The notes beneath the pieces were generated by a model. It was not told the DNA's origin. It saw nothing but the letters and a program-made list of their open reading frames with translations, and did no database searches. The translations under genes were made by a program, and so were the position numbers. Positions 1,006 to 19,497 of a DNA stretch of 24,000 nucleotides are shown piece by piece; the first letter of the stretch is position 1, and each line of letters starts with the position of its first letter. This stretch comes from Candidatus Electronema aureum. Its GTDB lineage: Bacteria; Desulfobacterota; Desulfobulbia; Desulfobulbales; Desulfobulbaceae. Where the stretch lies: positions 24,701 to 48,700 of the forward strand of contig NQJD01000013.1 of assembly GCA_004284765.1 (NCBI GenBank), in the 5' to 3' direction.

Positions 1006-1904
1006 TCCAAGATTGCCAAGCCAAAGCCAGTTTTTCCATAACCATTACCGTTGTAAAGCATATATCTTTGCCCATCATGATCAAACACAAAGGGATATTC
1101 AATCATTTCAGAATCCCATCCGGTCAGAGATACATCTATACCAGATAAATGATCAAGTCTGTCCCAATGCTTACCATCAGTTGATTCTGCATAGCCAATT
1201 CGATAGGAATGCCCACGGAAAGAATACCACATTCGCCAGCGGTCTGTATCATGAATAACTGATGGACGAGATATTGCATATTCATGTTCAGTCGAATAAT
1301 CAATTGCAACAAGACCATCCCGCTGCCAGCTTATTCCATCATGAGATTCAGCATATTTTATATGATATTTATGTTCTGGCTTTCCATTGCGTATCTGCCA
1401 GCCTGTACAGGACAAATACCACATTTTCCAAATATTTTCTTCATGGATAACACAGCAGCTGGCGCAAAAATGAGGCTCTCGTACAGAGCGGTCAAGAATT
1501 GGGCCGTTGGAATATCTCTTAAATATTTTTCCATCTGTACTAATTGATAATCCTATTGAGTTCCGAAATGGGACGGTTACACCAAGATTCCACCCTATAT
1601 AATAAAAATATTTTTCATCACCTTGCTGTGTAAGCCAAGTTGCCATTGCGCCGCTATCATCAAATTCTCCCATTTCTCCTGGTGATAAAACTGGTTCAGA
1701 AGACAAATCAACGATTTGATCAGGACGAGTGATGTCAATCACTACATAACCGGTAAAGCTTCTGTTTAAATTGTCTCTGGTGCTGAAATAAATTTTGAAT
1801 AATCTATCTTCCACATTTTCAGCAACAGGAACGGCAGCATGTGACCTCATCCACTCAATATTACCTGACGGACAAAAAACATGGCCAAGTTTTTTCCATT
1901 TCAT
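993..1904 (-). CDS. Beta-propeller protein of the GH32/43/130-like fold (predicted glycosidase/glycosylase), last gene of the AT-rich glycan operon
   Basis: 303-aa ORF with an ATG start. It begins MKWKKLGHVF.P......W..SHAAVP....D.LFKIYFSTRD. Recurring W/Y-rich blades (WKMWYLS, WRMWYSF, YRIGYAES.DG.HW) resemble propeller proteins seen in polysaccharide clusters. The function is not established. The 3' end overlaps the convergent regulator gene by 13 nt. Confidence 0.7.
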   Translation of the reverse strand: MKWKKLGHVFCPSGNIEWMRSHAAVPVAENVEDRLFKIYFSTRDNLNRSFTGYVVIDITRPDQIVDLSSEPVLSPGEMGEFDDSGAMATWLTQQGDEKYFYYIGWNLGVTVPFRNSIGLSISTDGKIFKRYSNGPILDRSVREPHFCASCCVIHEENIWKMWYLSCTGWQIRNGKPEHKYHIKYAESHDGISWQRDGLVAIDYSTEHEYAISRPSVIHDTDRWRMWYSFRGHSYRIGYAESTDGKHWDRLDHLSGIDVSLTGWDSEMIEYPFVFDHDGQRYMLYNGNGYGKTGFGLAILDHPV

Positions 1905-1911
1905 GGTATGT

Positions 1912-2577
1912 TTATATTTTTCTCAATCTCGTACTCGGTACTTTTGAACGTTCAGTTGCTGTACTAATATATACACCTTCTGGTTCTGTATCAGCCAAGA
2001 GGAGCGCGTTAGCCCCAATGACGCATCTATCTCCTACTTTGATGTGATCACGTAATGTTGCATTTACACCAATAAAACATTGTTCGCCAATTTCAACACC
2101 TCCAGAAATAACCACATGAGATGATATAAAATTATGATCCTTTATTACCGAGTGATGACCAATATGATTTCCGCTCCAGATAGTCACGTTGTTGCCGATA
2201 GTGACAAAAGGCTGAATAGTATTGTCTTCTAATATAAAACAATTTTCTCCGATCATCCCCTGATTAAGAACTGTGGCTTTAGGGCTAATAAAATTAGCAA
2301 ATTGATATCCTAACAATTTTGCTTTGATATATTTTTCTTTCCTTACAGCATTAAGTTTTGAATAACTTAATGCCACAAAAAAAGCGTGATCTGTCGGAGG
2401 ATAGAACCTCAATACATCTTCAAACGCAACAACAGGAAGATCGCAAAATTTGTGTTCTTTTATATATTCTGCATCAACTACAAAAGCTACAGTTTGGCAT
2501 TCTGAATCAGTGCTGAAATAAAAATGAGCAATCTGGGCAATGTCTCCTGTGCCAAAAATAACAAGTTTTTTTTTCAT
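1912..2577 (-). CDS. NeuD/PglD-type sugar N/O-acyltransferase (left-handed beta-helix, hexapeptide repeats)
   Basis: The N-terminus has a Rossmann-like MKKKLVIFGTGDIAQIA. The C-terminal part carries hexapeptide repeats (IGENCFI..NTIQPFVTIGNNVTIWSGNHIGHHSVI..HVVISGGVEIGEQCFIGVNATL..VGDRCVIGANALL). The ATG at 2575-2577 overlaps the upstream stop (ATGA). The ORF-track start at 2661 was rejected as an extension. Confidence 0.85.
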   Translation of the reverse strand: MKKKLVIFGTGDIAQIAHFYFSTDSECQTVAFVVDAEYIKEHKFCDLPVVAFEDVLRFYPPTDHAFFVALSYSKLNAVRKEKYIKAKLLGYQFANFISPKATVLNQGMIGENCFILEDNTIQPFVTIGNNVTIWSGNHIGHHSVIKDHNFISSHVVISGGVEIGEQCFIGVNATLRDHIKVGDRCVIGANALLLADTEPEGVYISTATERSKVPSTRLRKI

Positions 2578-3209
2578 AGTATTTTTTTCACAATAATTGT
2601 AAATTCGTAAAGACCGTAATCGTGTAACAAGGATACATTTTTTGAGTATAATCTCTTGCAACGATCAAACAGTACACAAGGATCAGCGTAATAAAGATAA
2701 TCACGTTTTTTATCAGTATCAGAATATGATGTTAAGCAATTAAAGGCGAATCCAACGCGACTCGTTCGATGCAGGTCGTCTAAAACAGAATGAATGTAGT
2801 CGCTCCATTCAGCATTCGTCTTTTCAAGACGGACATTAAAAATACCACTTGCCATTCCATAATCGGCATTTTGGTCAGGATGAGACGAGATAACAAACCT
2901 TACTTGCGATCCGCGCTGACAATGCCGCGTTGCGGCTTGAATCATCTCACGAGATACATCAATTCCAATATATAAAAATTCCTGATATCTACTTAGGAGG
3001 AAATGGTAAAATGCCCCATAGCCGCAACCAAGGTCATTCAAAGAAAAATTTGAATCTGTAACAATAAGTTTACAAAGTTGTTCAAAGCGGATCGTTTGAC
3101 TTTCGTGTCCATTCCAATCGACACCTTGAGGCGTCTGTCCATGCTGCGCAAGTTTTTCTGCGTAATAAGCAGCAACATCATTAAGAAGATCAACTTTCTT
3201 TTCTTGCAT
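2574..3209 (-). CDS. Class I SAM-dependent methyltransferase
   Basis: Motif I LNDLGCGYGAF is followed by YIGIDVS and an acidic loop. Start chosen at ATG 3207-3209 (MQEKKVDLL..), which overlaps the upstream GT2 gene by 20 nt. Confidence 0.85.
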   Translation of the reverse strand: MQEKKVDLLNDVAAYYAEKLAQHGQTPQGVDWNGHESQTIRFEQLCKLIVTDSNFSLNDLGCGYGAFYHFLLSRYQEFLYIGIDVSREMIQAATRHCQRGSQVRFVISSHPDQNADYGMASGIFNVRLEKTNAEWSDYIHSVLDDLHRTSRVGFAFNCLTSYSDTDKKRDYLYYADPCVLFDRCKRLYSKNVSLLHDYGLYEFTIIVKKIL

Positions 3210-4119
3210 AAATTTCTCGCACGATGGTATAAGGCCGCTGCTTCGTTTCCGAAAAAATTTTTGAAAGGTAAATACCAATCACGCCAACAAAGGAAATTAT
3301 CATGCCACCAAGCAACCATATTGAAGCCATGATCGATGTCCATCCGCTCAACGGTTTAGCAAGAAATGCCAAATGCACAAGCAACCAAGTAATATAGCTT
3401 ACAGCAAGAAAAGAAATAATAATTCCAATGTAAAAAATGATAATCAATGGAGCATTACTGAATGAAGTTACTGAGTTGACCAATAAAGCCATTTTTCTAC
3501 GTAAAGTATATGTTGTTGCACTCTCACTGTACTTTTTTATAAAATGAGGTTGTTGATTAAAACCAGTGATTTGCCAGAGGCCTGCTATTAAAATTTCTCT
3601 TTCTTTATGGAGTAATAAAGAATCAACGTAACGTCGTGTCATTAATCGTGCTGTAACGGCATTTTCAGGCAAAGAGAGTCCTGTTAGGATGTTAAATAAA
3701 CTATAGAATAAACTTCCGCTCCAACGCTCAAACCATCCCCCTTTGCGCTGTTCTTGAACCCCATAAATCACATCGCAGCAATCTCTTTGCATCTGCATGG
3801 AAAAGCTGATTAGATATTCTGGCTCTTCTTCAAGATCACTGTCGATTAAAAAAATTTGTTCCCCTTTAGCATAGGAAAGTCCTGTCATCATCGCTTTGTG
3901 ATGGCCAAAATTACGAGAAAGATCAACGAGAATAACGTGATGATCACGCACGGTAAGTTCTATGGCCAGCTCAAGACTCTTATCAGGCGAGCCGTCATTG
4001 ACGAAAATAATTTCATATTCTTCGTCAACGATCTGGCGGGCCACTGCACTTGCCCGTTCATGGAATTCTTGAATATACGGGGCAGATTGATAGAGAGTTG
4101 TGACAATAGAAAGCTTCAT
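3190..4119 (-). CDS. GT2 polyprenyl-phosphate glycosyltransferase (GtrB/ArnC-like) with C-terminal transmembrane pair
   Basis: The start [15 protein letters not shown], then [10 protein letters not shown] and LIDSDLEE (DxD), are GT-A signatures. Two hydrophobic helices lie near the C-terminus ([21 protein letters not shown]; [23 protein letters not shown]), as in bactoprenol glycosyltransferases. The ATG at 4117-4119 overlaps the upstream stop (ATGA). Confidence 0.88.
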
Positions 4120-4811
4120 GGAAGAATATGTTTCATATAATGACATGCTTCTTTGCCACAATTAAACAAAAGATCAAGAATCGTTACGCCATGCTTGAAA
4201 TTTCCCCAAAGTTGTGTATATTCAGGGTAGCCTGCATAATCAAACCATGTCAATTTGATGTTCATATCACGGAACACCTGTTCTTCGATATAATTTTTAG
4301 CAGCTGGGCCTGAAATATATTCAGTGCCGCCTGCCTGCACACAAAGATCAGCTAACCGTTCAGTTTTACTGTTGATCAAATTGTAATCACTTGAATGAGT
4401 GATAGCAGTTTTGATCCCCAAGTAATGACAAATAGCTTTAATAAATTTTCGATTAAGTTCGGATAGACCACTATATGACTCGCCAAGATACAGCGGCTCA
4501 AGCCATTCAGCAATTTCGCTAAAATGTTCTGCCCGACGATAGTTCATCATTAATTTTTTCCAATGATCTACAGCCCAGTCAGTTCCATCAATTTCAGTTT
4601 CATTTATTTTCTGATAAAATTTACCTTTTACTATAACTGGAACTGTCATCCATTGGACACCTTGTGGTGTTTTAATTTGATTTCTATTTCGCCAGTCTCT
4701 TCGGGTAAACTGCATGTCGTCATAAAGAATAAATTCATCAACAGCGGCAATTATATCAAAGTAGCCCTTCCAAGGAATATAATTTGATTGAATAATAGCT
4801 ATTTTTTTCAT
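4116..4811 (-). CDS. WbqC-family protein (polysaccharide-cluster protein of unknown biochemistry)
   Basis: [21 protein letters not shown]...[21 protein letters not shown] matches the WbqC-like N-terminal signature as I remember it. It is the first gene of the minus-strand operon. Start chosen at ATG 4809-4811; ATG 4830-4832 is an alternative. Confidence 0.75.
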
Positions 4812-4966
4812 ATATTTTTTGTTGCAACGCATCGTATATGATACCGATACTGTTTGTGATAAAGTAGCTCACGTCGCGAATATTCCTCTTCAGTCCTTCT
4901 TGCGCTGTCAGCGACAGAATTGAGGGGTAAAATTACCATGTTTCCTTCTTTGCTCCCAGTAAATAA

Positions 4967-5779
4967 ATGAACCTTGCTATAAAAAACGCCTTAGTGCTGG
5001 GTGCGAGCCGAGGCATTGGCCGGGCAATTGCCCGCAGATTGACCGCTGAAGGAGCGCAACTGATCTTGCCTTGGTTTGATTGGCCTGAATCCGTGCAGGA
5101 AATGGAAGAGGAATTCAGCGGACACCTTACCTTGCAGGCTGATCTGCGTGATGCGGAGAGCGTGCAGGCAATGAGTCGGCGTATCGCGAACGAATACGGT
5201 ACGCTCCATGTCCTGATCAACAACATTGAGCGTGGCGGTATGCCGGTGGTTCATGGCAGCTATCGCCGCCCAGTCAATCGCGAGCAGTGGCAGCTGGAAC
5301 TCGACACTACGCTACACGCCAAGTGGTTGGTTTTTGATGCCTGCCTGCCCTTGCTGCGGCAGGCCAAGCAGGCGGCAGTGGTCAATATCTCCTCAGTGGC
5401 AGCGATCACCGGACGTTCTGGCCCAGCTGGTCTACTCTTCAGCGACGGCTATACTGCCGCAAATCGAGGTATCAGTTCGTTCACCGAAACGTGGGCGCGG
5501 ATAGCTGCGCCAAGCATTCGGGTCAACGAGCTGATGCTCGGCTTGATCGACAGCCGCCACGGGCCAAGCACTAAGGGATGGTCTTTATTAAAGGAAGCGG
5601 AACGAGAGGCACTGCTGCGGCACACTCTGCTGGGGCGCACTGGTAGCCCAGAAGAGGTAGCGGAAGCCGCGCTTTTTCTGCTGAGGGCAGATTATATGAC
5701 CGGCGCGACGCTTCGGTTAGATGGCGGCTTTGTCTTGGGTGGGGAAAAGGTGCCAGAGATGCCGGACGGGGTAATCTGA
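4967..5779 (+). CDS. Short-chain dehydrogenase/reductase (SDR) family protein with atypical active-site motif
   Basis: NAD(P)-binding LVLGASRGIGRAIARRL and NNIE (NNAG-like) are present, plus NISSVAA (catalytic Ser region). The usual YxxxK reads YTAAN (no Lys). ATG start; convergent with the next gene across a 3-nt gap. Confidence 0.85.
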   Translation: MNLAIKNALVLGASRGIGRAIARRLTAEGAQLILPWFDWPESVQEMEEEFSGHLTLQADLRDAESVQAMSRRIANEYGTLHVLINNIERGGMPVVHGSYRRPVNREQWQLELDTTLHAKWLVFDACLPLLRQAKQAAVVNISSVAAITGRSGPAGLLFSDGYTAANRGISSFTETWARIAAPSIRVNELMLGLIDSRHGPSTKGWSLLKEAEREALLRHTLLGRTGSPEEVAEAALFLLRADYMTGATLRLDGGFVLGGEKVPEMPDGVI

Positions 5780-9823: not shown

Positions 9824-10849
9824 TTATTTGCCAAAACTACAAACTGGGTACTGGCAGAATTTACAATTTCGGCAAAGGCCACCGTGGCCCATTGCAGCGA
9901 AGTCTTCCCGACTGAGGCGTTCTCCTGCCAGAATGCGTGGCAGTACCAAATCAAAGACGGTAATTTTATGAAACATGCCGCAGGCAGGCAAACCGACCAC
10001 CGACACCGTGCCGATTCTGCCGACCAAAAACATAGCACCAGGCAGCACGGGGGTGCCGTAAACGATGTCCTTAGCCCCAGCCTCGCGAATACCGGCGCGG
10101 GTGACATCATCAGGATCGACCGACATGCCGCCGGAGGTGATGACTAACTCCGCACCGACAGCGATACATTGGCTGATTTGCTCGGCAATTAAACCAGCAT
10201 CATCTGGCGCGAAACCCACCCGCACCACCTCTGAGCCGAGGACCGTGAGTTTGCCGCGCAGCACGGCCTCGAATTTATCTTCAATTCTGCCGTGAAAAAC
10301 CTCGCTGCCAGTGATGACTATCCCGGCCTTGACCATAGGCAAGGACAGCACTCGGACGATCTTTTCACCTGCGTTAGCAATTTCGACTGCCTGCGCAATT
10401 AAGCTTCGGTCGCCAACCAAGGGAATCAAGCGAACAGCTGCTACTTGCTCGCCTTTTTTCACCGGCGTATTGTCATGCAAGGTGGAACACATCACTTCGC
10501 CGAGCAAATTGAAGCGGAACGAAGCTTCTTTATCAATTTTTAGCAGGCCATCATGGGCAGCAAGAATGCTCACCTTGCCTTCATGTACGTCATCAGAGTA
10601 TTCCACGCCGCTGCCCGCCAAAGCCGCAGCCATCAATAGTGCTGCTTCGTTTTCATGAATTTCCTCAGCTGCAAGCTCAAGGACGTAAATATGCTCCTTT
10701 CCTAAGCTGCGCAGGCGGTCAATATCTTCCTGGCGGACAATATGTCCTTTTTTAAAAGCTCGTCCTTTGAATTTGTCTTGAACAATTTCAGTGATGTCAT
10801 GAGGCAGAACCATGCCCACGGCTTGATCAACAGGGATACACTTTTTCAT
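9824..10849 (-). CDS. Molybdopterin-binding (MoeA/MogA-like MoCF domain) protein with C-terminal Cys cluster
   Basis: MoCF-biosynthesis-like core: KAGIVITGSEV...AELVITSGGMSVDPDDVT...PVLPGAMFLVG. The C-terminus is CRNCKFCQYPVC (C-x2-C-x2-C-x4-C). ATG start at 10847-10849. Confidence 0.7.
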   Translation of the reverse strand: MKKCIPVDQAVGMVLPHDITEIVQDKFKGRAFKKGHIVRQEDIDRLRSLGKEHIYVLELAAEEIHENEAALLMAAALAGSGVEYSDDVHEGKVSILAAHDGLLKIDKEASFRFNLLGEVMCSTLHDNTPVKKGEQVAAVRLIPLVGDRSLIAQAVEIANAGEKIVRVLSLPMVKAGIVITGSEVFHGRIEDKFEAVLRGKLTVLGSEVVRVGFAPDDAGLIAEQISQCIAVGAELVITSGGMSVDPDDVTRAGIREAGAKDIVYGTPVLPGAMFLVGRIGTVSVVGLPACGMFHKITVFDLVLPRILAGERLSREDFAAMGHGGLCRNCKFCQYPVCSFGK

Positions 10850-10991
10850 TTTTTCCGGTTCCGGTGGTTGTTTTGCTGGCAGCGGGCCGCGTTTCTGGTA
10901 CTATAGCCGGTTGCGGCCCGGCTTGCAGGACAATTTTTCCGCAGGCAGTTTTTCATTTTTTCCTTTGGCAAAATTTAACTCAGAAAAGACC

Positions 10992-11168
10992 ATGATCAGC
11001 CAGAAACTCCTCGAAATTATTGCCTGTCCCAAGTGCAAGGGACAGGTACAGCTCTCTGAAACCCAAGACGGCCTCATCTGCACCGTCTGTCAGCTTGTTT
11101 ATGAAATTCGAGATGATATCCCGATTATGCTGATTGATGAGGCCAAGCCACTGATACAAGCAGCATGA
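10992..11168 (+). CDS. Trm112-family small zinc-ribbon protein
   Basis: MISQKLLEIIACPKCKGQV....GLICTVCQLVYEIRDDIPIMLIDEA is the Trm112/YcaR pattern (CPxC...C..C, then PIML..EA). The internal ATG at 10992 is preferred over the ORF-track start at 10911. Confidence 0.8.
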   Translation: MISQKLLEIIACPKCKGQVQLSETQDGLICTVCQLVYEIRDDIPIMLIDEAKPLIQAA

Positions 11169-11322
11169 AAAAATCAGAAGTTACGTAGGCTTAAAATATA
11201 ACGAATTGATTTTATTCATGAGTTTCTTTTTATGAAAAAGATAACCTGCTTGAATTATTCATTTTGTAATATTGAACTGCGTAACTCCTATTAATTTTTC
11301 GCAAGTCCCATGTTTGAAAATT

Positions 11323-11331
11323 TGATATAAT
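11323..11331 (+). promoter_or_regulatory. Candidate extended -10 promoter element (TGATATAAT) in the long AT-rich leader of the Cys-rich protein gene
   Basis: TGnTATAAT match at 11323-11331. There is no convincing -35. It would give a ~165-nt 5' UTR. This is a pattern match only. Confidence 0.25.
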
Positions 11332-11498
11332 CAATCGGGGTTTGTTATGAATCGGTTTTCTTTTTTGCCTTGCCAGACTGCTGAAGAAATTATATTCTAA
11401 TGAAGAAAAGCTGTTCTCTTATTGTGCTTGTTTTTTCGTAAATACTCGAAATAGATGAGGCATGAGAGAAAAAATTAACAGAAAAGGAGAGTTGGAAC

Positions 11499-12623
11499 AT
11501 GAAAGTGAAGATGCTGCTGCAAACTGCTGCGCTACTGCTTCTATCAGCAGGGCTTGCCCAAGCCGGAGGTACTAAGTTCGGCAAAAAACATTTGACTTGC
11601 GATGATTGTTCAGCAGAGTGCCTGAAAAATCCCTATGCTAAAGGCTGCCCGGATATCTGCAAGTCACCTGATTGTCAGGCATCTTGCAATGACTGCCCGG
11701 CAGAATGTAAGCAGCATCCGGGCGCGAAGGGTTGTCCTGAGATATGTACAGATATCAAATGTCAGTCCTGTGAAGATTGCACCCCTGAATGCAAAAAGAA
11801 TCCTACAGACACAAGCTGCCCAGATATCTGCAAGGACATGAAATGCTACACGTGCGATGACTGCTCGGTAGAATGTGTCATTGATCCTACTGGTAAAGAT
11901 TGTTCTCCAGTCTGCGCTGATCTCGGTTGCAATGTCTGTGATAAATTTCCCAAAGATTGTCCGGCCTCATGCAAGGACAACCCGAACGACCCTGATAAAT
12001 GTCGCGCTGAATGCAAGGATGTTCCTGAAAAATGCTTGCTACCAAAGGGAACCTGCGATGATTGTTCTCCGGCATGTAAAGATGGCACTGAAAAAGATCC
12101 AGAGGCCTGTAAATCTTGTCCGCAGGAATGTCTGCCGGAGTTACCACCGGTTGTTGAGACTGAACGGCCTTTCAAGTTTGTTGGTGATCTCGGCTACTTC
12201 AAGCAGACTGATCCGGCAGATTACATCTTTGGACGGTTCGGCGTAGAATATAGTCCCTTTGCTACAGGCAGCGAATTTGAAAACATCTCTTTCTTGGGCA
12301 TGATTGGTGCTGCCGCACAAGTGAACGGTACAGATGGTGACGATGCGCTATTGCTGGATGTTTTTGCCAACTACAACTGGAAGGCAGGCGATGTTGACGG
12401 CTGGGTCGGTCTCGGTGTGGGTGGCTGGATCACCTCCGGCGATGTGGAAGATGATTCAGGAGACACTGACATAGATGTTATGGCCAACATCGGTGCCCGC
12501 GTCTATGGCGATCCAAAAGATTTCAATGTATCTTTCTTCTTAGAGGTACGCAGTGCGGTTGATGAGTTTGACGGTTTGGCCGAATATGGTCGTTTCGGTG
12601 CAGGTGTTCGCTGCAAGTTCTAA
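11499..12623 (+). CDS. Secreted cysteine-rich tandem-module protein fused to a C-terminal predicted outer-membrane beta-barrel
   Basis: RBS AAGGAGA (11484-11490) precedes the ATG. Signal peptide MKVKMLLQTAALLLLSAGLAQA. Residues 34-211 hold 36 Cys (hand count) in six modules. Residues ~215-374 are Gly/Asp/aromatic-rich with alternating hydrophobic strands and end ..GRFGAGVRCKF (terminal Phe). A strong terminator follows. Confidence 0.8.
   Translation: MKVKMLLQTAALLLLSAGLAQAGGTKFGKKHLTCDDCSAECLKNPYAKGCPDICKSPDCQASCNDCPAECKQHPGAKGCPEICTDIKCQSCEDCTPECKKNPTDTSCPDICKDMKCYTCDDCSVECVIDPTGKDCSPVCADLGCNVCDKFPKDCPASCKDNPNDPDKCRAECKDVPEKCLLPKGTCDDCSPACKDGTEKDPEACKSCPQECLPELPPVVETERPFKFVGDLGYFKQTDPADYIFGRFGVEYSPFATGSEFENISFLGMIGAAAQVNGTDGDDALLLDVFANYNWKAGDVDGWVGLGVGGWITSGDVEDDSGDTDIDVMANIGARVYGDPKDFNVSFFLEVRSAVDEFDGLAEYGRFGAGVRCKF
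11598..12131 (+). repeat. In-frame tandem Cys modules: four ~28-aa (~84-nt) copies of C-x2-C-x3-C-x8-C-x3-C-x4-C, plus two degenerate copies
   Basis: CDDCSAECLKNPYAKGCPDICKSPDC / CNDCPAECKQHPGAKGCPEICTDIKC / CEDCTPECKKNPTDTSCPDICKDMKC / CDDCSVECVIDPTGKDCSPVCADLGC, then two looser 6-Cys units. The copies are diverged at the DNA level, so this is not a recent expansion. Confidence 0.75.
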
Positions 12624-12633
12624 GGTATAAACA

Positions 12634-12668
12634 GGGTCTGCCGGTCGGCAGACCCTTCTGATTTTTTT
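12634..12668 (+). terminator. Rho-independent terminator after the Cys-rich protein gene
   Basis: GGGTCTGCCG-GT-CGGCAGACCC perfect inverted repeat (12634-12655), then a T7 run at 12662-12668, 10 nt past the stop codon. Confidence 0.65.
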
Positions 12669-12825
12669 CCCATTTTTTTCTATATCATCATATTGTGTGT
12701 TGCCTTTTTCTTGCAAAAAGAAAAAGTAAGCTATAAATTATGCAATTAAAGTTGTAATGAGATGACTTTTAAAAAATAAGCAGGCAGGAATCAACCTGTT
12801 TTCACGCTGAATAGAGACGTTTGAT

Positions 12826-13542
12826 ATGGATTTATTAGGAAAAAAGTATATTAAAGTTTCAATCATCATCCCCGCCTATAACGAGGAAAAAACCTTAAAA
12901 ACGGTAATTGATGCCGTGCAGTCAGTTAACCTGCCGTTGATCAAGGAGATTGTTGTCGTGGATGATTGTTCTACTGACAGCACCCGGCAGGTTATGGAAC
13001 AACTGCGCGACGACAACATAGTCAAGATTTTTCATGAAAAAAATCAAGGCAAAGGAGCCGCATTGCGTTCCGGTATTGCCAAAGCGACAGGTGATATTGT
13101 TCTGATTCAAGATGCAGATTTGGAATACGATCCGGCAGAATATCCCAAACTGCTCCAGCCGATTCTGGACGGCAAGGCTGACGTGGTTTATGGTTCGCGT
13201 TTTGTCGGCTCTGAAGCACACAGGGTATTGTATTTCTGGCACATGATGGGAAATCGGCTTTTGACTTTGCTCTCCAACATGTGTACTAATCTGAACTTGA
13301 CCGACATGGAAACCTGCTACAAGGTCTTTCGCAAGGAGATTATTCAGAACATTAAGATTAGAGAAGATCGCTTCGGTTTTGAGCCAGAAATTACGGCAAA
13401 AGTTGCCAGAACTGGATGCCGAATTTACGAAATTGGCATTTCTTATAGCGGACGTACCTATGCCGAAGGTAAAAAGATCGGCATAAAAGACGGCTTCCGC
13501 GCTCTGTACTGTATTATCAAATATCGTTTCCTTGCGGAATAA
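12826..13542 (+). CDS. Soluble GT2 glycosyltransferase of the polyprenyl-phosphate sugar synthase type (Dpm1/Ppm1/YkcC-like)
   Basis: [33 protein letters not shown] (DxD) and [19 protein letters not shown] are typical of short dolichyl/polyprenyl-phosphate glycosyltransferases. 238 aa, ATG start. Confidence 0.85.
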
Positions 13543-13562
13543 ACACCAGTTGCAGTTATTTC

Positions 13563-14417
13563 ATGAACATTCCTGAATTTCCCATCCCCTTTGTCAAAAT
13601 GAGTGGCACCGGCAATGATTTTATCCTCATTGACCACCGCCAGCCGCTGATCGAGCCTGAATCCATGTCCGCCTTTGCCGCTGCTGTCTGCCGCCGCAAG
13701 TTTTCGGTCGGCGCGGACGGGTTGATTCTGATTGAAAATTCTGAGCAGGCTGATTTCCGCTGGCGTTTTTTCAACGCCGATGGCTCGGTTGCGGAAATGT
13801 GCGGCAACGGAGCGCGCTGCGCGGCCCGCTTCGCCTTCATGCAGGGCATTGCTCCGGCGAAAATGCGCTTTGAAACTTTAGCTGGGATCATCGAGGCGGA
13901 GGTTTCTGGTGACGAAGTAGCAGTGAAGATGACCGAGCCTCGTGATCTGCGCCTGCATCAGACCATCAGTGTTAACAACGCGCCGCTCATCATGCACAGC
14001 CTCAACACCGGTGTGCCTCATGCGGTGGTCTTTGTTGACAATATCGAAGAAACCGACGTGTGTGGCCTTGGCAGGGCGATCCGTTATCACGAAGCCTTTC
14101 AACCTGCTGGCACCAATGTCAATTTTGTCCAGAAGCGCGGCGAGGCCTTCAAGGTACGCACCTACGAACGCGGCGTGGAGGATGAAACCCTCGCCTGCGG
14201 CACCGGCTCCGCTGCCAGCGCGATCATCGCCGCCTTGTTGGGCCAAGCTGCCTCGCCCGTCGAAATTATCACCTCTGGCAACGACCGGTTGATGATTTTG
14301 TTCGACCTGAGCAAGGTTAAGGCTGGCGGAACAGGGCCGATTGTTTATAATGTTTTCCTCAAAGGCCCGGCCCGGATTATTTACGAGGGAGAACTGCGCA
14401 ACGAGGCATTGCTTTAA
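13563..14417 (+). CDS. dapF: Diaminopimelate epimerase
   Basis: FVKMSGTGNDFILID, NADGSVAEMCGNGARC (first catalytic Cys), SLNTGVPHAVVFV and ETLACGTGSAA (second catalytic Cys). Full length at 284 aa. Confidence 0.95.
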   Translation: MNIPEFPIPFVKMSGTGNDFILIDHRQPLIEPESMSAFAAAVCRRKFSVGADGLILIENSEQADFRWRFFNADGSVAEMCGNGARCAARFAFMQGIAPAKMRFETLAGIIEAEVSGDEVAVKMTEPRDLRLHQTISVNNAPLIMHSLNTGVPHAVVFVDNIEETDVCGLGRAIRYHEAFQPAGTNVNFVQKRGEAFKVRTYERGVEDETLACGTGSAASAIIAALLGQAASPVEIITSGNDRLMILFDLSKVKAGGTGPIVYNVFLKGPARIIYEGELRNEALL

Positions 14418-14466
14418 TTCAGCAAAAATGAACAGATATTTTTTTCTGTAGTAAAATAGACATATG

Positions 14467-14483
14467 ATCAATATAATATTGAT
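14467..14483 (+). promoter_or_regulatory. Perfect 17-bp palindrome ATCAATAT-A-ATATTGAT containing a consensus TATAAT, 19 nt upstream of the cassette's first gene
   Basis: 8-bp arms are exact reverse complements. TATAAT lies at 14472-14477. No clear -35. It could be a -10 element, an operator, or both. Confidence 0.35.
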
Positions 14484-14501
14484 GCTCAGTCAAATGATAT
14501 T

Positions 14502-15800
14502 ATGAATATAACAAAAAGAGATTTTTTCGTCTCAATTATTCTGTTAATTATTTCCGCTTTTTTTTTCTGTTATGTAAACTTGAGCATTAAGTCATTCGAT
14601 GAATGGCATTCTTTGAAATATGCAACACCAGACAGTAAAACATATCTTGATGTTGGCAGATGGATTTTAGGTGAAAATACATTTGATAATGCAGAAAGCA
14701 GCGTTGCGATAAGACCTTTTTTTTATCCTCTCGTTATTGTAATTTTAGATTCAATACATCCTTTAGCTGTAGCAATATTTCAATTTACTTTATGGCAGAT
14801 TCAAATTTTGATGATTTATTTTTTTTGTATTAAAGTAAGCAGATTATTTATTTTGTCAATTTTAGTCTCGGTGTTAAGTATTGGCATCCTTTCTCCTATA
14901 GGGATATCTTTACATGCTCTCACGGAAACGTTATCATCATTTTTCATTACTTTTTCCATATTCATATTTATCTTTTTTTTGGAAAAAAATTCATACAGAT
15001 ATATTTATGCATATTTATTATCGTTATCTTTTTGTTCCGCAACCAGACCATCTTATATATATGTATATATTTTTTCAATAATGATACTTTTCTTTTTTTT
15101 AATAAAAAAAAGGAAGTTTTTTTATATATGCATACTTGCAACAACATTTCTTCCGATATCATTACAATATTATGTAATGAAGAAACATTTTGATAGCTAC
15201 AAATTATCTTTTATTGATTCCTTTGCTATAAATGATTATTTTTTATCAGGACTTGAGCTGTATAAAAGAAAAGTTGAATTTGATGCTAATAGAAATTTAT
15301 ACATACGAATGGTTCGCGATGCGAGACGTGAATATATGGCAGAAATGATTAAGGAAAAAGGGTATGGAGAAACATCAAAAAAAGTAAAAAGTGATCTTCT
15401 TGCCAGTTTAGTTAATTACCCTAATGAAAGTCTTCGTCAATTTAAAGACTTAATTATTGAAAATTCAATGCAGCCATCATCATTTATTACGGCTAATAAA
15501 AATTTATACATTGCTACTTTTGCTCAAAGCAAACTTCTTTTGACAATAAATATAATTTCTGCTTTATTTTTTTCTGTGATTATTTTTAATAAAAAATATT
15601 TTGCTGAAGAAATTTATGAAAAAAATATCGTATTCAGCTTGTTGATATTTTTCTGCATATATTTTACATATATTTCTACAGGGCTTACCTTCTGGCAAGG
15701 AGACAGATTTATTATTCCTATATACTATGCAAGTATCATGTTGTTTGTGCATCAAACAAGAATGTTTTTTGCATTTATCAGAAATACAAATAAGAAATAA
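14502..15800 (+). CDS. Polytopic inner-membrane protein, candidate GT-C-type (ArnT/PMT-like) glycosyltransferase or related glycan polymerase/ligase
   Basis: 432 aa with roughly 10-12 hydrophobic helices. An acidic motif (SFDEWH) sits in the first extracytoplasmic loop after TM1, as in GT-C enzymes. A ~100-aa soluble helical insert spans residues ~230-335. The gene is extremely AT-rich. The functional call is tentative. Confidence 0.5.
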   Translation: MNITKRDFFVSIILLIISAFFFCYVNLSIKSFDEWHSLKYATPDSKTYLDVGRWILGENTFDNAESSVAIRPFFYPLVIVILDSIHPLAVAIFQFTLWQIQILMIYFFCIKVSRLFILSILVSVLSIGILSPIGISLHALTETLSSFFITFSIFIFIFFLEKNSYRYIYAYLLSLSFCSATRPSYIYVYIFSIMILFFFLIKKRKFFYICILATTFLPISLQYYVMKKHFDSYKLSFIDSFAINDYFLSGLELYKRKVEFDANRNLYIRMVRDARREYMAEMIKEKGYGETSKKVKSDLLASLVNYPNESLRQFKDLIIENSMQPSSFITANKNLYIATFAQSKLLLTINIISALFFSVIIFNKKYFAEEIYEKNIVFSLLIFFCIYFTYISTGLTFWQGDRFIIPIYYASIMLFVHQTRMFFAFIRNTNKK

Positions 15801-15807
15801 TATTAAA

Positions 15808-16383
15808 ATGAAAGAGCCGATCTTTGAACCTGTTTTAAGGAAAATACGTATAGGAAAAGTTATTGATGAAATCAAAAATATTCCAAGATGCAATCTTCTC
15901 GATATTGGATGCGGTTTTAACTATAGTTTTTTGTCTGCGGTGGAACAATATATCGAGCATGGGACAGGTATTGATTTTAAAGTCAATGAAATTTATTCTG
16001 AAAAAATATCAACCATCAAGATGGTGTTAGATGAAACCTTAAACTTCAATGACTGTTCATTTGATGCTGTAACAATGCTTGCTGTTCTTGAGCATATAGA
16101 CAAGCCGATACATATATTTTCTGAAATATATCGAGTTTTAAAGCCAGGTGGAAAATTAATACTTACGGTTCCTGGAAAAAAAGCAAAGCCGTTGTTGGAA
16201 TTTCTTGCTTTCAAGATAGGAATTGTTAGTAGAGCTGAAATAGAAGACCATAAAAAATATTATGATTTAGAAGAGATCAGCCAGCTCGTATTAAATATCA
16301 ATGAATTTGAAATAATAAAGCATGAGCATTTCCAGTTTGGAATGAATAATTTTTGTGTTATAAAAAAATCTATGATTAGCTGA
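15808..16383 (+). CDS. Class I SAM-dependent methyltransferase (cassette gene 2)
   Basis: Motif I LLDIGCGFN, then FDAVTMLAVLEHI and LKPGGKLILTVP. The ATG at 15808 starts 8 nt after the preceding stop. The ORF-track start at 15727 would overlap the membrane protein gene. Confidence 0.85.
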   Translation: MKEPIFEPVLRKIRIGKVIDEIKNIPRCNLLDIGCGFNYSFLSAVEQYIEHGTGIDFKVNEIYSEKISTIKMVLDETLNFNDCSFDAVTMLAVLEHIDKPIHIFSEIYRVLKPGGKLILTVPGKKAKPLLEFLAFKIGIVSRAEIEDHKKYYDLEEISQLVLNINEFEIIKHEHFQFGMNNFCVIKKSMIS

Positions 16384-16390
16384 TTTTTCT

Positions 16391-16668
16391 ATCAAAGAAA
16401 CTGACGTGCTCGGCTTTGGCCGAGTGATCCGCTGTCGCGAAGCCTTTCAGCCTGCAAACACTAACGTCAACTTTGTGCGGACGTGCAGCTTGGCCAAGCT
16501 ACTTCGCCCGTTGAAATTATCACCTCCGGCAACGACCGCCTGACGATTTTATTCAACCTGCCGGAGCATAAGGCTGGCGGAACTGCGCCAATTGTTTATA
16601 ATGTTTTCCTCAAAGGGCCTGCTCATGCGGTCTATCAGGGCGAGCTGACCGCCGAGGCATTGCTTTAA
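16391..16668 (+). pseudogene. dapF: Displaced, diverged and frameshifted 3' remnant of dapF (codons ~161-284 equivalent, with a net 97-nt internal deletion)
   Basis: Hand alignment: 16391-16480 vs 14043-14132 gives 69/90 identical, and 16492-16668 vs 14241-14417 gives 141/177 identical. Both copies end GAGGCATTGCTTTAA. The two halves are in different frames, and the ACGTGS catalytic-Cys region is missing. The 61-aa ORF at 16483-16668 (..SPVEIITSGNDRL..IVYNVFLKGP..) is the tail of this remnant. Confidence 0.85.
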
Positions 16669-16684
16669 ATCCAAGGAGAATGAG

Positions 16685-17575
16685 ATGACAGCAGCACAAC
16701 GAATTCAGGGCGCGATCACCGCGATTGTCACCCCGATGCGCGACGGCAGAGTTGACGAGGAAAGCCTCGTCAATCTGATCAATTTTCAGATCGACAACGG
16801 CATTCATGGCCTCGTGCCCTGCGGCACCACCGGCGAATCAGCCACCCTCAGCTTTGCCGAGCACAAGCGGGTGATCGAGCTGACCGTGAAGACCGTGGCA
16901 GGCCGGGTGCCGGTCATTGCCGGAACCGGGGCCAACAACACTCTTGAGGCCATCGAGTTGACCGAGTCGGCCAAGGACAGCGGCGCGGACGCAGTACTCT
17001 CTGTGGTGCCCTATTACAATAAGCCGAGCCAGGAAGGGCTGTACCGGCATTTCAAGGCCATCACCGAAACGGTGGATATTCCGGTGGTGCTCTACAACGT
17101 GCCAGGCCGCACCGTCACCAATATGGCTCCGGCCACGGTCGCACGGCTGGCCGAGCTGCCCAATGTCATCGGCATTAAGGAGGCCTGCGGCTGCCTGAAC
17201 CAGATTTCCGAGATCATCCGCATCTGCCCGAAGGACTTCATTGTGCTTTCTGGCGATGACTTCACTTCCATGCCCACCGTGCTGATTGGCGGCAATGGCG
17301 TGATCTCAGTGACCTCGAACGTAGCTCCTAAAGCGATGGCCGAGCTGATGGAAGCGGCCCTGCGCGGCGATTTGGCCAAGGCCAAGGAGATTCATTACAA
17401 ATTCTTCCCGCTCATGGGCACGATGTTCTGCTATCCCAGCCCAGCTCCGGCGAAAAAGGCCGTGCATCTGATTGGCAAGATTGCCTCGCCGGAAGTGCGC
17501 CTGCCGATGACCGAGATGGACGAGCCGTCGCTGAACAAGCTGACTGCTGAGATGAAGAAGGTGGGATTGATTTGA
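16685..17575 (+). CDS. dapA: 4-hydroxy-tetrahydrodipicolinate synthase
   Basis: AIVTPM, VPCGTTGES, YYNKP, IGIKEA (Schiff-base Lys) and the overall 296-aa length. RBS AAGGAGA at 16673-16679. Confidence 0.95.
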   Translation: MTAAQRIQGAITAIVTPMRDGRVDEESLVNLINFQIDNGIHGLVPCGTTGESATLSFAEHKRVIELTVKTVAGRVPVIAGTGANNTLEAIELTESAKDSGADAVLSVVPYYNKPSQEGLYRHFKAITETVDIPVVLYNVPGRTVTNMAPATVARLAELPNVIGIKEACGCLNQISEIIRICPKDFIVLSGDDFTSMPTVLIGGNGVISVTSNVAPKAMAELMEAALRGDLAKAKEIHYKFFPLMGTMFCYPSPAPAKKAVHLIGKIASPEVRLPMTEMDEPSLNKLTAEMKKVGLI

Positions 17576-17631
17576 TTTAAGCAGGGGCGGTTGATGAACA
17601 ACTGCCTCTGTTGCTAATATATTGCTGAAAT

Positions 17632-18570
17632 ATGAAGAAAAGACCGAGAATTATTCAGAAAACAAAAAGCCTTTTGCAGAAAGAAATATCATCGATATGT
17701 CCTTTCTGTGATAATGAGGATGTCGATCATTTTCATTTTCATCATATTGATGAAAATCCAGAAAACAACGACATGCTTAACCTCTTGATGCTATGCCCTA
17801 TTTGTCACTCAAAAATTACAAAGGGCGATATAACGAGAGAAGATGTTGAACGGAAAAAGCGAGACATATCAACTAATCAAAAGGACGTTCTTTTGTTTTT
17901 TCAAGAAATAGCTCCGCTTGTATTTGACTTGATTATTTTTGGAGAACAGGAGAAGGATCGTAGCATAAATCCTTGGGTCAGCAGGCTGGAATCAAGATAC
18001 AGCGAGATATCTAACGAATTAAGAAGATTAGCTATTAAAGATGTTTCTATTCAGAAAGGATGGACTGTCTTGTTAGATGAATTGGCAAAGTCTATTGATA
18101 ATTTTGTTAATAGGGAAGTTTGTCTGTATCGCGGCTTAACAGAAGACATTAAAGATGCCGTGGAAAAAGCTAAACACCTCAAGGTATCGATAATTGATCC
18201 TTTTTTCGCTTCACAAAGGGCACCTTTAACACTTAAAAAAGATTTTGCGATGCAACTCAGGATGTTAAAAAGCCTGAATGATAGAGCGGAAATGATGCTC
18301 AACGAAGGAAAAATTGAGGAGTTACAGGGGAAAGTCTCAGAAATAGGTCACGATTTATTGATATTGAGCATGTACAATACAGAGGATTTCCCGAAAGCTA
18401 TAAAAGGAAAATTATATAGCATTTCAAGAGAAATCCATTTAATGGAAACAAAGAGAAATAATCATTCTTTCGATAGACAGGAGTCATTCAGAAATCGACT
18501 CAATGAACTTAGCGGACAATTAAACGCGCTGGCAGTAGAACTGCCGAATGTAACGTATGCAGCAAACTGA
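17632..18570 (+). CDS. HNH (beta-beta-alpha-Me) nuclease domain protein with an unrecognised ~230-aa alpha-helical C-terminal domain
   Basis: The N-terminal ~75 aa read CPFC..DVDHFHFHHID.NPENNDMLNLLMLCPICHSKI. That is a CxxC/CxxC zinc knuckle flanking the His-Asn-His catalytic pattern. I do not recognise the rest (residues ~80-312). The gene is AT-rich relative to flanking dapA/dapB. ATG start. Confidence 0.8.
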   Translation: MKKRPRIIQKTKSLLQKEISSICPFCDNEDVDHFHFHHIDENPENNDMLNLLMLCPICHSKITKGDITREDVERKKRDISTNQKDVLLFFQEIAPLVFDLIIFGEQEKDRSINPWVSRLESRYSEISNELRRLAIKDVSIQKGWTVLLDELAKSIDNFVNREVCLYRGLTEDIKDAVEKAKHLKVSIIDPFFASQRAPLTLKKDFAMQLRMLKSLNDRAEMMLNEGKIEELQGKVSEIGHDLLILSMYNTEDFPKAIKGKLYSISREIHLMETKRNNHSFDRQESFRNRLNELSGQLNALAVELPNVTYAAN

Positions 18571-18585
18571 TTGATCAAAACTGAC

Positions 18586-18617
18586 ATCATAAGCATCTTT
18601 GATCATAAGCATCTTTG
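18586..18617 (+). repeat. Perfect tandem duplication of a 16-nt unit (ATCATAAGCATCTTTG x2) just downstream of the HNH gene
   Basis: Read directly: 18586-18601 and 18602-18617 are identical. Confidence 0.7.
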
Positions 18618-18684
18618 CAGACGTGACCATTGACCTCAAGAATGTCTTTGAGAAAGACTCATTAACAACCCAAGAGAGCCAATT

Positions 18685-19497
18685 ATGACCAAAGTAATTG
18701 TAGCCGGAGCAGCCGGTCGGATGGGCCGCCGCATCTGCGACATGGTGCGGCAGCATCGCGACCTAACCTTGAGCGCGGCCTTTGAACACGCGGACAGCCC
18801 TTTTATCGGCAAGGATGTCGGTGAAGTGGCGGGCTTCGGCGCGACCGGCGTGAAAATATCTGCGGGCTTGGAATCAGTGATTGATCAAGGCGAGGTGATT
18901 ATTGATTTCACCTTCCACAAGGCCACGATGGAATTCATCAAAGTTGCGGCCAAGCATGGCCGGGCAATGGTGATTGGCACCACCGGCCTGACTGCGGAGA
19001 ATATCGCAGTGCTGCGCGAGACCGCCGCAGGCCATTTCCCCTGCGTTCAGTCGCCCAACATGGCCGTGGGCGTGAACGTGCTGTTCAAGCTGGTGGAGAA
19101 AACCGCTGCCGTGCTGGGCAATGCTTATGATGTGGAGATTGTCGAGGCGCACCACCGAATGAAGAAGGATGCGCCGTCCGGCACCGCGCTCCGGCTGGGC
19201 GAAATGGCCGCTGCTGGCTTGGGCCGCAATCTGGCGGAAGTGGGCGTGTATGAGCGGCACGGCATGATCGGCGAGCGCACGGACAAGGAGATCGGCATCC
19301 AGACCATCCGGGCCGGGGATATTGTCGGCGAGCATACCGTCTATTTCGCTGGTGCGGGCGAGCGGATCGAGATCACTCATCGCGCCCACAGCCGCGACAA
19401 CTTCGCACGCGGCGCGGCCTTGGCTGCGGCGTGGGTTGCGGACAAGCCCAAGGGATTGTACACCATGTTTGACGTGCTTGATCTGGGCAATTTCTAA
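18685..19497 (+). CDS. dapB: 4-hydroxy-tetrahydrodipicolinate reductase
   Basis: KVIVAGAAGRMGR (NAD(P) binding), IGTTGL, SPNMAVGVN and EAHHRMKKDAPSGTA (signature motif). Confidence 0.95.
   Translation: MTKVIVAGAAGRMGRRICDMVRQHRDLTLSAAFEHADSPFIGKDVGEVAGFGATGVKISAGLESVIDQGEVIIDFTFHKATMEFIKVAAKHGRAMVIGTTGLTAENIAVLRETAAGHFPCVQSPNMAVGVNVLFKLVEKTAAVLGNAYDVEIVEAHHRMKKDAPSGTALRLGEMAAAGLGRNLAEVGVYERHGMIGERTDKEIGIQTIRAGDIVGEHTVYFAGAGERIEITHRAHSRDNFARGAALAAAWVADKPKGLYTMFDVLDLGNF

Follow-up and report, generated by a model that had tools for sequence, protein, structure and literature searches.

Between the diaminopimelate epimerase gene dapF and the 4-hydroxy-tetrahydrodipicolinate synthase gene dapA, Candidatus Electronema aureum GS carries an AT-rich block of two genes and, after it, a damaged second copy of the dapF 3′ end. 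We analyzed this locus in a 24-kb stretch of the E. aureum genome (the window, whose positions are the coordinates used below). We read the dapF remnant as a scar left by recombination between members of the genus and not as the trace of a mobile element from outside. For its origin we favor, with moderate confidence, RecA-type duplicative recombination that placed or exchanged a putative envelope-glycosylation module between dapF and dapA, the scar being later overwritten. The two genes of the block encode a membrane protein (MEM) and a methyltransferase (MT), and a GT2 glycosyltransferase gene lies upstream of dapF. The parts of the locus are:

12826-13542, + strand: GT2 glycosyltransferase, 238 aa, of the polyprenyl-phosphate-sugar synthase type (ArnC/GtrB/AglJ/PpgS-like; Pfam Glycos_transf_2, 3.7e-38)

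13563-14417, + strand: intact dapF, 284 aa (TIGR00652, 259 bits, cut-off 114.65)

14283-14417, + strand: type-B allele segment of the intact dapF, codons 241-284, ending ...LMILFDLSKVKAGGTGPIVYNVFLKGPARIIYEGELRNEALL

14418-14501, + strand: left junction and intergenic region; homology to the remnant stops 3 nt after the dapF stop

14502-15800, + strand: MEM, a polytopic membrane protein of 432 aa with a predicted GT-C fold, 26.8% GC (AlphaFold2 model and Foldseek)

15808-16383, + strand: MT, a class I S-adenosylmethionine-dependent methyltransferase, 191 aa from MKEPI, 31% GC (Methyltransf_11, 1.2e-15; Methyltransf_23, 1.4e-13)

16390-16489, + strand: old, decayed part of the dapF remnant, codons 160-193 (76/100 identical to 14042-14141)

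16490-16671, + strand: young, type-A part of the remnant, codons 226-284 and stop (16666-16668), ~79% identical without gaps to 14239-14420

16672-16684, + strand: native dapF-dapA junction with AAGGAGA ribosome-binding site, nearly identical to the empty-site intergenic region

16685-17575, + strand: dapA (TIGR00674, 363 bits)

An earlier note on this DNA had described the intact dapF, the AT-rich two-gene block, the second dapF 3′ copy and the native dapA junction, and all of these are present. The window proteins match Ca. E. aureum GS records exactly in two assemblies: the 2019 short-read metagenome-assembled genome (MAG) holds identical proteins (TAA75007/8/12), as does the closed 2.94-Mb genome (CAK87226xx), which was built from Nanopore and Illumina reads and has a single-nucleotide polymorphism rate of <0.1% and 100% average nucleotide identity to the earlier MAG (PMC10030654). 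The entire structure is also covered, at 100% protein identity, by L083, a Logan assembly made independently from SRR14559659. Since L083 spans the locus and the proteins are identical in the MAG and the closed genome, a chimeric assembly is excluded; three independent assemblies agree on the structure, and the concern that the contig might be chimeric can be set aside. Two further Logan contigs, L081 and L082, do end inside the AT-rich membrane gene, as collapsed strain variation or a chimeric contig could make them do, but homologous architectures also occur in independent genomes, and we give an assembly artefact practically no weight.

GC content falls from ~58% at dapF to 22-30% over 14421-16389. 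The two dapF 3′ copies are the only long direct repeats in the window that match coding sequence; the other repeat family is a 42-nt AT-rich repeat within MEM, and a search across the 24 kb for further gene-3′ duplications found none. Pfam and NCBIfam scans of all open reading frames (ORFs) of 12826-18570 detected no recombinase in or next to the AT-rich block, in agreement with the earlier note, returning only GT2, DapF, the methyltransferase, DapA and a weak HNH match. Scanning 12500-19000 and the whole window for Rfam families and tRNA genes gave nothing relevant.

We recovered 14 Electronema loci, which form three arrangement groups. Library labels are PJ for L090, V4 for L084, VV for L085 and TJ for L086; L093 is Desulfobulbus sp. 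F3.

Empty sites, with dapF and dapA 15-22 nt apart and no remnant: VV (L085), TJ (L086), L087, L089, L091, L092, L095

Occupied sites, with the module between dapF and dapA and then a dapF remnant: window, PJ (L090), V4 (L084), L096, L097

Module upstream of GT2 (MEM-MT-GT2-dapF): L093 (contiguous), L091 (MT 3′ end directly upstream of GT2)

The locus is polymorphic within Electronema in both the position and the presence of the module. Unrearranged relatives without relics, as a duplicative rearrangement would leave, are found in the seven empty sites, which the earlier note had proposed to look for, and in the MEM-MT-GT2-dapF order of L093 and L091. One outcome that would have refuted the earlier note, a remnant in relatives that lack the cassette, does not occur at these empty sites. 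The occupied sites differ among themselves: PJ has MEM and MT with a remnant from ~codon 194; V4 has MEM only, with a remnant from ~codon 239; L097 has MEM, MT and a decayed type-B remnant with an in-frame stop; and in L096, with MEM and MT, the remnant is interrupted by DNA resembling an insertion sequence. dapA is seen beyond the remnant in three of the four occupied lineages other than the window. GT2 stands directly upstream of dapF in most Electronema loci. L093, whose MEM-MT lies upstream of GT2, carries a different GT-C gene (3836-5066, Pfam PMT_2) 10 nt after dapF, so the slot downstream of dapF takes more than one kind of GT-C gene. Other Desulfobulbales have dapF-dapA-dapB contiguous. 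The GTDB species representatives comprise distant Desulfobulbales only (DapF 47-60% identical); they show this ancestral contiguity, and were set aside as too distant for placing the two dapF copies.

The window remnant (16390-16671) begins 6 nt after the MT stop, is truncated at its 5′ end and internally deleted, and is recognized by DapF in tblastn at E=1e-30. It has small indels and a net internal deletion of 97 nt that takes out codons 194-225, including ACGTGS. The hand alignment of the earlier note (69/90 and 141/177 identical positions, 11 nt standing for 108 nt, the ACGTGS catalytic-Cys region lost) agrees with our re-alignment. The intact DapF has both catalytic Cys motifs, MCGNG and ACGTGS, and is 87-92% identical to other Electronema DapF proteins. 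The junction to dapA reads TAA-ATCCAAGGAGAATGAG-ATG in the window and TAA-TCC(CC)AAGGAGAAYGAG-ATG in empty-site relatives.

The two parts of the remnant differ in their divergence. The 5′ part reaches no more than 78.6% identity with an intact dapF of Electronema, while the 3′ part is 95-96% identical to the intact dapF of VV and G0113 and to the V4 remnant, vs 79% to the window's own dapF. At columns invariant in 12 intact genes, changes number 9/52 in codons 160-193 and 1/110 in codons 226-284 (Fisher p=1.6e-4). The 3′ part is not intrinsically protected, because the L097 remnant carries 13/90 invariant-column changes there. Judged by these counts, the window remnant is composite in age, an old decayed 5′ part joined to a young type-A 3′ part.

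Type A refers to one of two allele classes into which the DapF C-termini of Electronema (last 44 codons) divide. Type A ends in ...LTILFSLPEHKAGGTAPIVYNVFLKGPAHAVYQGELTAEALL and type B in ...L(M/L)ILF(D/E)L..VK.GGT..IVYNVFLKGPARIIYAGEL..EALL; residues 1-240 do not discriminate between them. Codons 241-284 of the intact window gene match 38/44 residues of the type-B proteins P0001, P0002 and P0003 (the last being DapF of Desulfobulbus sp. F5, the closest relative), 34-35/44 of the type-B variants P0008 and P0012, and 27-32/44 of type-A proteins; at the nucleotide level this segment has 88-90.5% identity with L091, L096 and L097, as against 73-80% with type-A genes. The window's two copies are thus supported as members of different allele lineages, the intact gene ending in type B and the remnant in type A, much as the earlier note had argued from their ~20% divergence. 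That divergence would reflect C-terminal allele types that circulate in the genus. Both occur in empty-site genomes (A in VV, TJ, L087 and L089; B in L091, L092 and L095), and the type-B end, as an ordinary allele found also at empty sites, need not have come with the cargo. Divergence between a gene and an adjacent remnant does not by itself tell which copy is foreign.

These comparisons also bear on the possibility that the segment was simply duplicated in tandem within the E. aureum lineage, the copies diverging in place and no exchange between lineages taking part. PJ offers a likeness, as its intact and remnant dapF have PJ-specific substitutions in common and are 93.9% identical, which indicates gene conversion or a younger duplication in that strain. 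In the window, by contrast, the remnant 3′ part is closer to other lineages than to its own copy by the figures above, and the intact end belongs to the allele class of other genomes. In-place divergence cannot make a pseudogene converge on the functional alleles of other lineages, and we therefore consider purely local duplication improbable.

Low divergence extends from the young part into dapA. The tract runs from 16490 to ~16930 and includes the first ~245 nt of dapA. Over 16528-16930 (~400 nt) it differs by ~3% from V4, VV and G0113, by 7% from TJ and by 14% from L091; against V4 there are ~12 differences in this interval (~3%), vs ~19% over 16940-17100. The simplest reading of this pattern is that the young part and the dapA 5′ tract were imported later, by homologous recombination, from an A-type lineage. 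The import would have overwritten the remnant 3′ part and the dapA 5′ end, with the remnant and dapA supplying the homology and with its left end at the 97-nt deletion, the boundary of old and young sequence. Such homologous overwriting explains the ~20% difference of the two copies.

Relics of a second kind were found in PJ and V4. In both, ~100 nt right after the intact dapF stop are a decayed dapA 3′ relic, colinear with dapA codons ~254-293 (Smith-Waterman scores of 64 for PJ and 53 for V4, vs 17.5±2.7 for shuffled sequence; 0/300 shuffles reach them), and relic and junction are common to the two strains (score 82; 0/500 shuffles). In PJ and V4 the module thus stands between two relics, one of the dapA 3′ end to its left and one of the dapF 3′ end to its right. 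dapA is required for lysine and diaminopimelate synthesis, and losing most of one dapA is viable only with a second copy, so that an intermediate dapF-dapA-[MEM-MT]-'dapF-dapA, with two dapA copies, seems implied by these relics. PJ further retains a relic of an L093-type MT upstream of GT2 (score 90 vs 24±3.6 shuffled), so that in PJ an upstream module would have been replaced by a downstream module of a different allele. An MT relic upstream of GT2 was sought also in the window, V4, VV, G0113, L092 and L096, and PJ alone had one. In the dapF-MEM spacer of the window, a dapA relic was sought and not found by nhmmer with a dapA-3′/relic profile, and 60/300 shuffles reach its Smith-Waterman score against dapA; its similarity to the V4 relic is marginal (6/500 shuffles reach the score).

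We can now weigh the one-step history proposed in the earlier note, homology-facilitated illegitimate recombination (HFIR). In the allele terms used here, an incoming type-B dapF 3′ end with its cargo would have displaced the resident type-A end, which then decayed; the homologous crossover would lie inside dapF and the illegitimate joint at resident codon ~160. The topology fits, with an intact gene, cargo and a 5′-truncated copy that keeps the native dapA junction, and a recombinase is absent. The alleles fit too: the intact end is of type B, and the remnant 3′ part is of the type seen in many empty-site genomes. The cargo has the type-B end on its left and the type-A tract 16490-~16930 on its right, and either could be the donor's. 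The window MT, moreover, is nearest to the B-type cassette loci L096 and L097 (79%, vs 72% for PJ). A single displaced piece should, however, be uniform in age, and the remnant is not; its 3′ part decays if left alone, as it has in L097. The module with a remnant recurs in PJ, V4, L096 and L097, and the dapA relic of PJ and V4 cannot be generated in this way. Nor is the cargo foreign DNA, being a native cable-bacterial module. Displacement by incoming DNA thus survives in part: the copies from different lineages, the empty sites and the missing recombinase agree with it, while a single step and a foreign cargo do not. We hold one-step HFIR to be unlikely as the whole history, though it is the leading competitor; HFIR may have had a share in carrying the arrangement from one lineage to another.

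The earlier note had also considered an island that targets the 3′ end of a gene. In that case a degenerate site-specific element would have entered at the dapF 3′ end with a replacement 3′ end in its attP, its integrase being since lost. The topology, with a replacement 3′ end and the old end at the far side, is that of e14 at icd; and empty and occupied sites are both found among relatives. Phage 21 and e14 are known to integrate in icd (PMC12803456). Housekeeping protein-coding genes are thus already on record as insertion anchors, and it would be too strong to extend to them the remark of the earlier note, which was not aware of an essential lysine or peptidoglycan gene in that role. Against an island, an integrase, excisionase or other mobility gene is present in 0/5 occupied loci (window, L084, L090, L096 and L097), and no att-like core is specific to occupied sites: the repeats are 75-79% identical, and their 26-nt identical run occurs also in empty-site dapF. 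Remnant lengths vary by lineage, the cargo is two metabolic genes only, which elsewhere lie next to GT2, and there is neither a tRNA nor a viral homologue. An island of this kind is very improbable.

The duplicative history that we favor would run as follows. The module moved, or was exchanged, into the dapF-dapA gap through duplicative RecA-type recombination with no site-specific element. Either a tandem duplication or a Campbell-type single crossover of a circular 'dapF-dapA-module molecule would have produced the intermediate with two dapA copies, from which redundant copies were lost, leaving relics; in E. aureum the import from A-type Electronema would have come afterwards.

Several points weigh against this history. 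No two-dapA genome and no dapA-MEM adjacency was found among the 14 Electronema loci, a small sample. The window has no detectable dapA or MT relic, and its link to the history of PJ and V4 is drawn from the homologous arrangement. The remnants appear to begin at different codons (160 in the window, ~188 in L096 and L097, ~194 in PJ, ~239 in V4), and independent events at the occupied sites are possible. The direction of exchange between types A and B is an interpretation; the intact 3′ end may have been replaced, and not the remnant. Selection on a dapA promoter or coupling element could be the cause of the low divergence of the young part. Finally, the glycosylation function is suggested by fold and gene neighbourhood only. 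A junction of MT stop and dapF codon 160 shared with PJ, L096 and L097 looked plausible on inspection but was not supported, since 285-771/1000 shuffles reach the score (32 nt after the MT stop vs dapF); L096 and L097 show fragmentary dapF homology from ~nt 562-583.

As for why the remnant persists, we speculate that it carries the native translation-initiation region of dapA and possibly an internal promoter. A sigma-70 promoter or terminator was considered as the reason and rejected, there being no two-hexamer promoter in 16390-16684 and no hairpin but a weak one at 16575-16590; the dapF-MEM spacer has a promoter-like site at 14429-14457. The longest identical run between the window's two copies is a 26-nt block, ATTGTTTATAATGTTTTCCTCAAAGG (dapF nt 778-803), at 14340-14365 and 16591-16616, whose synonymous sites are conserved in Electronema dapF. 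Its first 20 nt form the longest invariant run in the 12 intact dapF genes, the runner-up having 9 nt, and the full 26-mer is identical in 3/4 remnants. It holds a perfect TATAAT, at 16597-16602 in the remnant, ~82 nt upstream of the dapA start codon. From this conservation the block could serve as a promoter for dapA inside dapF, or as some other element at the level of DNA or RNA, which might explain the constant retention of at least the last ~140 nt of dapF upstream of dapA.

PJ (L090) has additional features at this locus. At 9895-9990 an insert of ~100 nt separates the MT stop from the dapF remnant. It contains a GC-rich hairpin, CCCTGCCCCTTGGGGCGGGG, as well as another palindromic stretch, GTCGCAAGCGAAGG...CCAAGGCTTCGCAAT, and is possibly a terminator or else a small repeat element. 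Further on, an ~80-nt direct repeat of the dapA 3′ end (stop and downstream hairpin) at 11127-11210 and 11778-11855 flanks a PhdYeFM-ParE toxin-antitoxin cassette. By its sequence layout this is a second case of the architecture seen at dapF, in which the 3′ end of the gene before the cassette is repeated after it.

A different use of the same repeats was also considered, in which the repeat-flanked module is a mobile cassette that needs no recombinase and hitchhikes on homology. RecA recombination between the dapF 3′ repeats would loop the module out as a circle with one dapF 3′ copy; the circle, taken up by another Electronema filament, would re-insert by a single crossover at the dapF 3′ end, regenerating an intact dapF and a remnant, and the PJ toxin-antitoxin cassette would be a second instance. 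We rate this as doubtful, somewhat below one-step HFIR. If true, it would be a general route that shuttles envelope and defence cassettes into slots after essential genes in cable bacteria.

The inserted genes themselves were characterized in part through structure prediction. GT2 has AglJ, ArnC, dolichyl-P hexose transferase and PpgS as top NCBIfam matches, all below their (equivalog) cut-offs. MEM has no Pfam or NCBIfam match. Its AlphaFold2 model, from a 15-sequence alignment, is all-helical (predicted local distance difference test 80.6, predicted template modelling (TM) score 0.85), and its top Foldseek matches in the PDB are all GT-C enzymes, namely PglB, OST STT3, Pmt1/2/4, Emb and AftB (probability ~1.0, E ~0.02, TM 0.33-0.47), so that the predicted structure has the polytopic helical membrane fold of solved GT-C enzymes. 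MEM does not match a curated GT-C sequence family (e.g., PMT_2, PF13231); an exhaustive profile search placed its remote relatives in 777 representative clusters, and PMT_2 appeared below threshold in 3/10 of the remote relatives (17-19 bits vs a cut-off of 26.1). D44, Y40, S45 and Y48, just after the first predicted transmembrane helix, are invariant in the 15 sequences, and D44 is a candidate for the conserved acidic residue of the first extracytoplasmic loop of GT-C enzymes. For MT, the ORF list gives a start at 15727, while homologues begin with MKEPI, at 15808; the stop is 16381-16383. The window MT is 72-79% identical to the MT that follows MEM in PJ, L096 and L097, and 67% to that of L093.

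The earlier note had called the block a foreign cassette. A word-index search found only 14 close MEM homologues, at 38-58% identity, which are from cable bacteria wherever the source is named. A phage origin was rejected, with no relative among 2.9 million viral contigs and no PADLOC match for MEM. Because its homologues (at least 38% identity) are confined to cable bacteria, its probable partner GT2 adjoins dapF, and the module stands upstream of GT2 in L093 and L091, the MEM-MT block appears to be a lineage-variable cable-bacterial module and not alien cargo. MEM, MT and GT2 are tied together by the contiguous MEM-MT-GT2 of L093. Among lineages, protein identity rises from MEM (55-60%) through MT (72-79%), GT2 (80-89%) and DapF (87-92%) to DapA (92-98%), a gradient of the kind seen where a surface-modification gene diversifies. 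Genes of this sort typically have low GC, as does a second glycan block of the window, at 993-4832.

By analogy with ArnC/ArnT and GtrB/GtrC, GT2 is probably the functional partner of MEM, and the module would be a lipid-carrier-dependent periplasmic glycosylation system with a methyltransferase added. MEM would use the polyprenyl-phosphate-sugar made by GT2 and pass the sugar to an acceptor on the periplasmic side.

Other inserts lie nearby. The dapA-dapB interval (dapB 18685-19497) holds a second AT-rich operon insert, which is not part of the dapF scar:

17632-18570, + strand: HNH-like ORF, 312 aa

This ORF is found also at L085 8820-9737, and has weak PADLOC matches to HNH proteins of the ZorE/PtuB type. 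A 16-nt tandem repeat, ATCATAAGCATCTTTG, stands in two copies at ~18590-18625, at the right edge of the insert. The slot after dapA is filled differently by lineage: HNH (window, VV, F5), DUF4145 (L087, PJ), PhdYeFM-ParE (PJ), AIPR abortive infection (V4) and Uma2 (L091). From this content it looks like a defence-gene hotspot.

The second glycan block (993-4832, - strand; 36-40% GC) encodes a hexapeptide acyltransferase, a methyltransferase, a GT2 and a WbqC-like protein, and is wedged between response-regulator and short-chain dehydrogenase genes, both of ~58% GC. At 11499-12623 (+ strand) is the gene of a 374-aa secreted protein with a signal peptide, ~190 aa of Cys-rich repeats (>40 Cys; DCxxEC...CPxxC) and a C-terminal domain of ~150 aa, ending ...RCKF, that resembles an outer-membrane beta-barrel; it has no Pfam match. 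The Cys-rich repeats suggest that this protein might bind metal; if it does, this would be of interest for the conductive fibres of cable bacteria, which depend on Ni.

The envelope is central to the biology of cable bacteria, and to our knowledge nothing is known of their envelope glycans. The findings mark what is probably a strain-variable surface-glycosylation locus, GT2 with a fast-evolving GT-C protein and a methyltransferase, embedded in the dapF-dapA-dapB operon; such variation of surface genes usually reflects pressure from phages or predators. They would also provide a clean natural example of homologous and duplicative recombination inserting genes in an essential operon without any mobile-element enzyme, with pseudogene scars later partly "refreshed" by recombination with other lineages.

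Several known systems resemble this locus in part. Like the ArnC/ArnT and GtrB/GtrC pairs, it has an ArnC/GtrB-like GT2 beside a divergent low-GC polytopic transferase, MEM being 55-60% identical among lineages where DapA is 92-98%. Unlike gtrABC, it has an extra methyltransferase, and is chromosomal, split by dapF and not phage-borne; no GtrA-like small membrane ORF (flippase) was found in 10800-16400, so the three-gene set of gtrABC is incomplete here.

When an element enters icd, a substitute 3′ end from the element keeps the gene intact, and the original 3′ end becomes a pseudogene at the far side. Phage 21 and e14 at icd are thus alike in having a coding gene as anchor, an intact gene and the old 3′ end at the far side; they differ as integrase-driven prophages with att cores, whereas the present locus has a metabolic cargo of 2 kb and neither an integrase nor an att core. 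In rhs and cdiA, a new 3′ end arrives together with a linked gene; recombination takes place in the conserved part, and the old end is orphaned downstream. This displacement likewise pushes an old 3′ end downstream as an orphan remnant, but there the variable 3′ end (the toxin tip) is the selected payload, while in the present locus the two dapF ends are functionally equivalent and it is the cassette between them that forms the payload.

HFIR, reportedly described by de Vries and Wackernagel during natural transformation, is like the present case in that no recombinase gene is involved and one homologous anchor with one illegitimate joint places non-homologous DNA beside a conserved gene. It usually brings in truly foreign DNA and leaves no relics of both neighbours, unlike the clade-native cargo that recurs at this site.

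Campbell insertion-duplication and tandem duplication with random loss have been described mainly for engineered suicide vectors and mitochondrial gene-order change. They too put a block between genes and leave direct repeats of gene fragments, of which one copy stays intact and the other decays; recombination between such repeats can precisely restore an empty site, and the relics of PJ and V4 are the classic pattern. The differences are that this is an essential bacterial biosynthetic operon, that none of the 14 loci is a two-copy intermediate, and that the repeats of the window are of different allele classes. The locus is not a new class of mobile element, but a structural polymorphism explained by known recombination processes.

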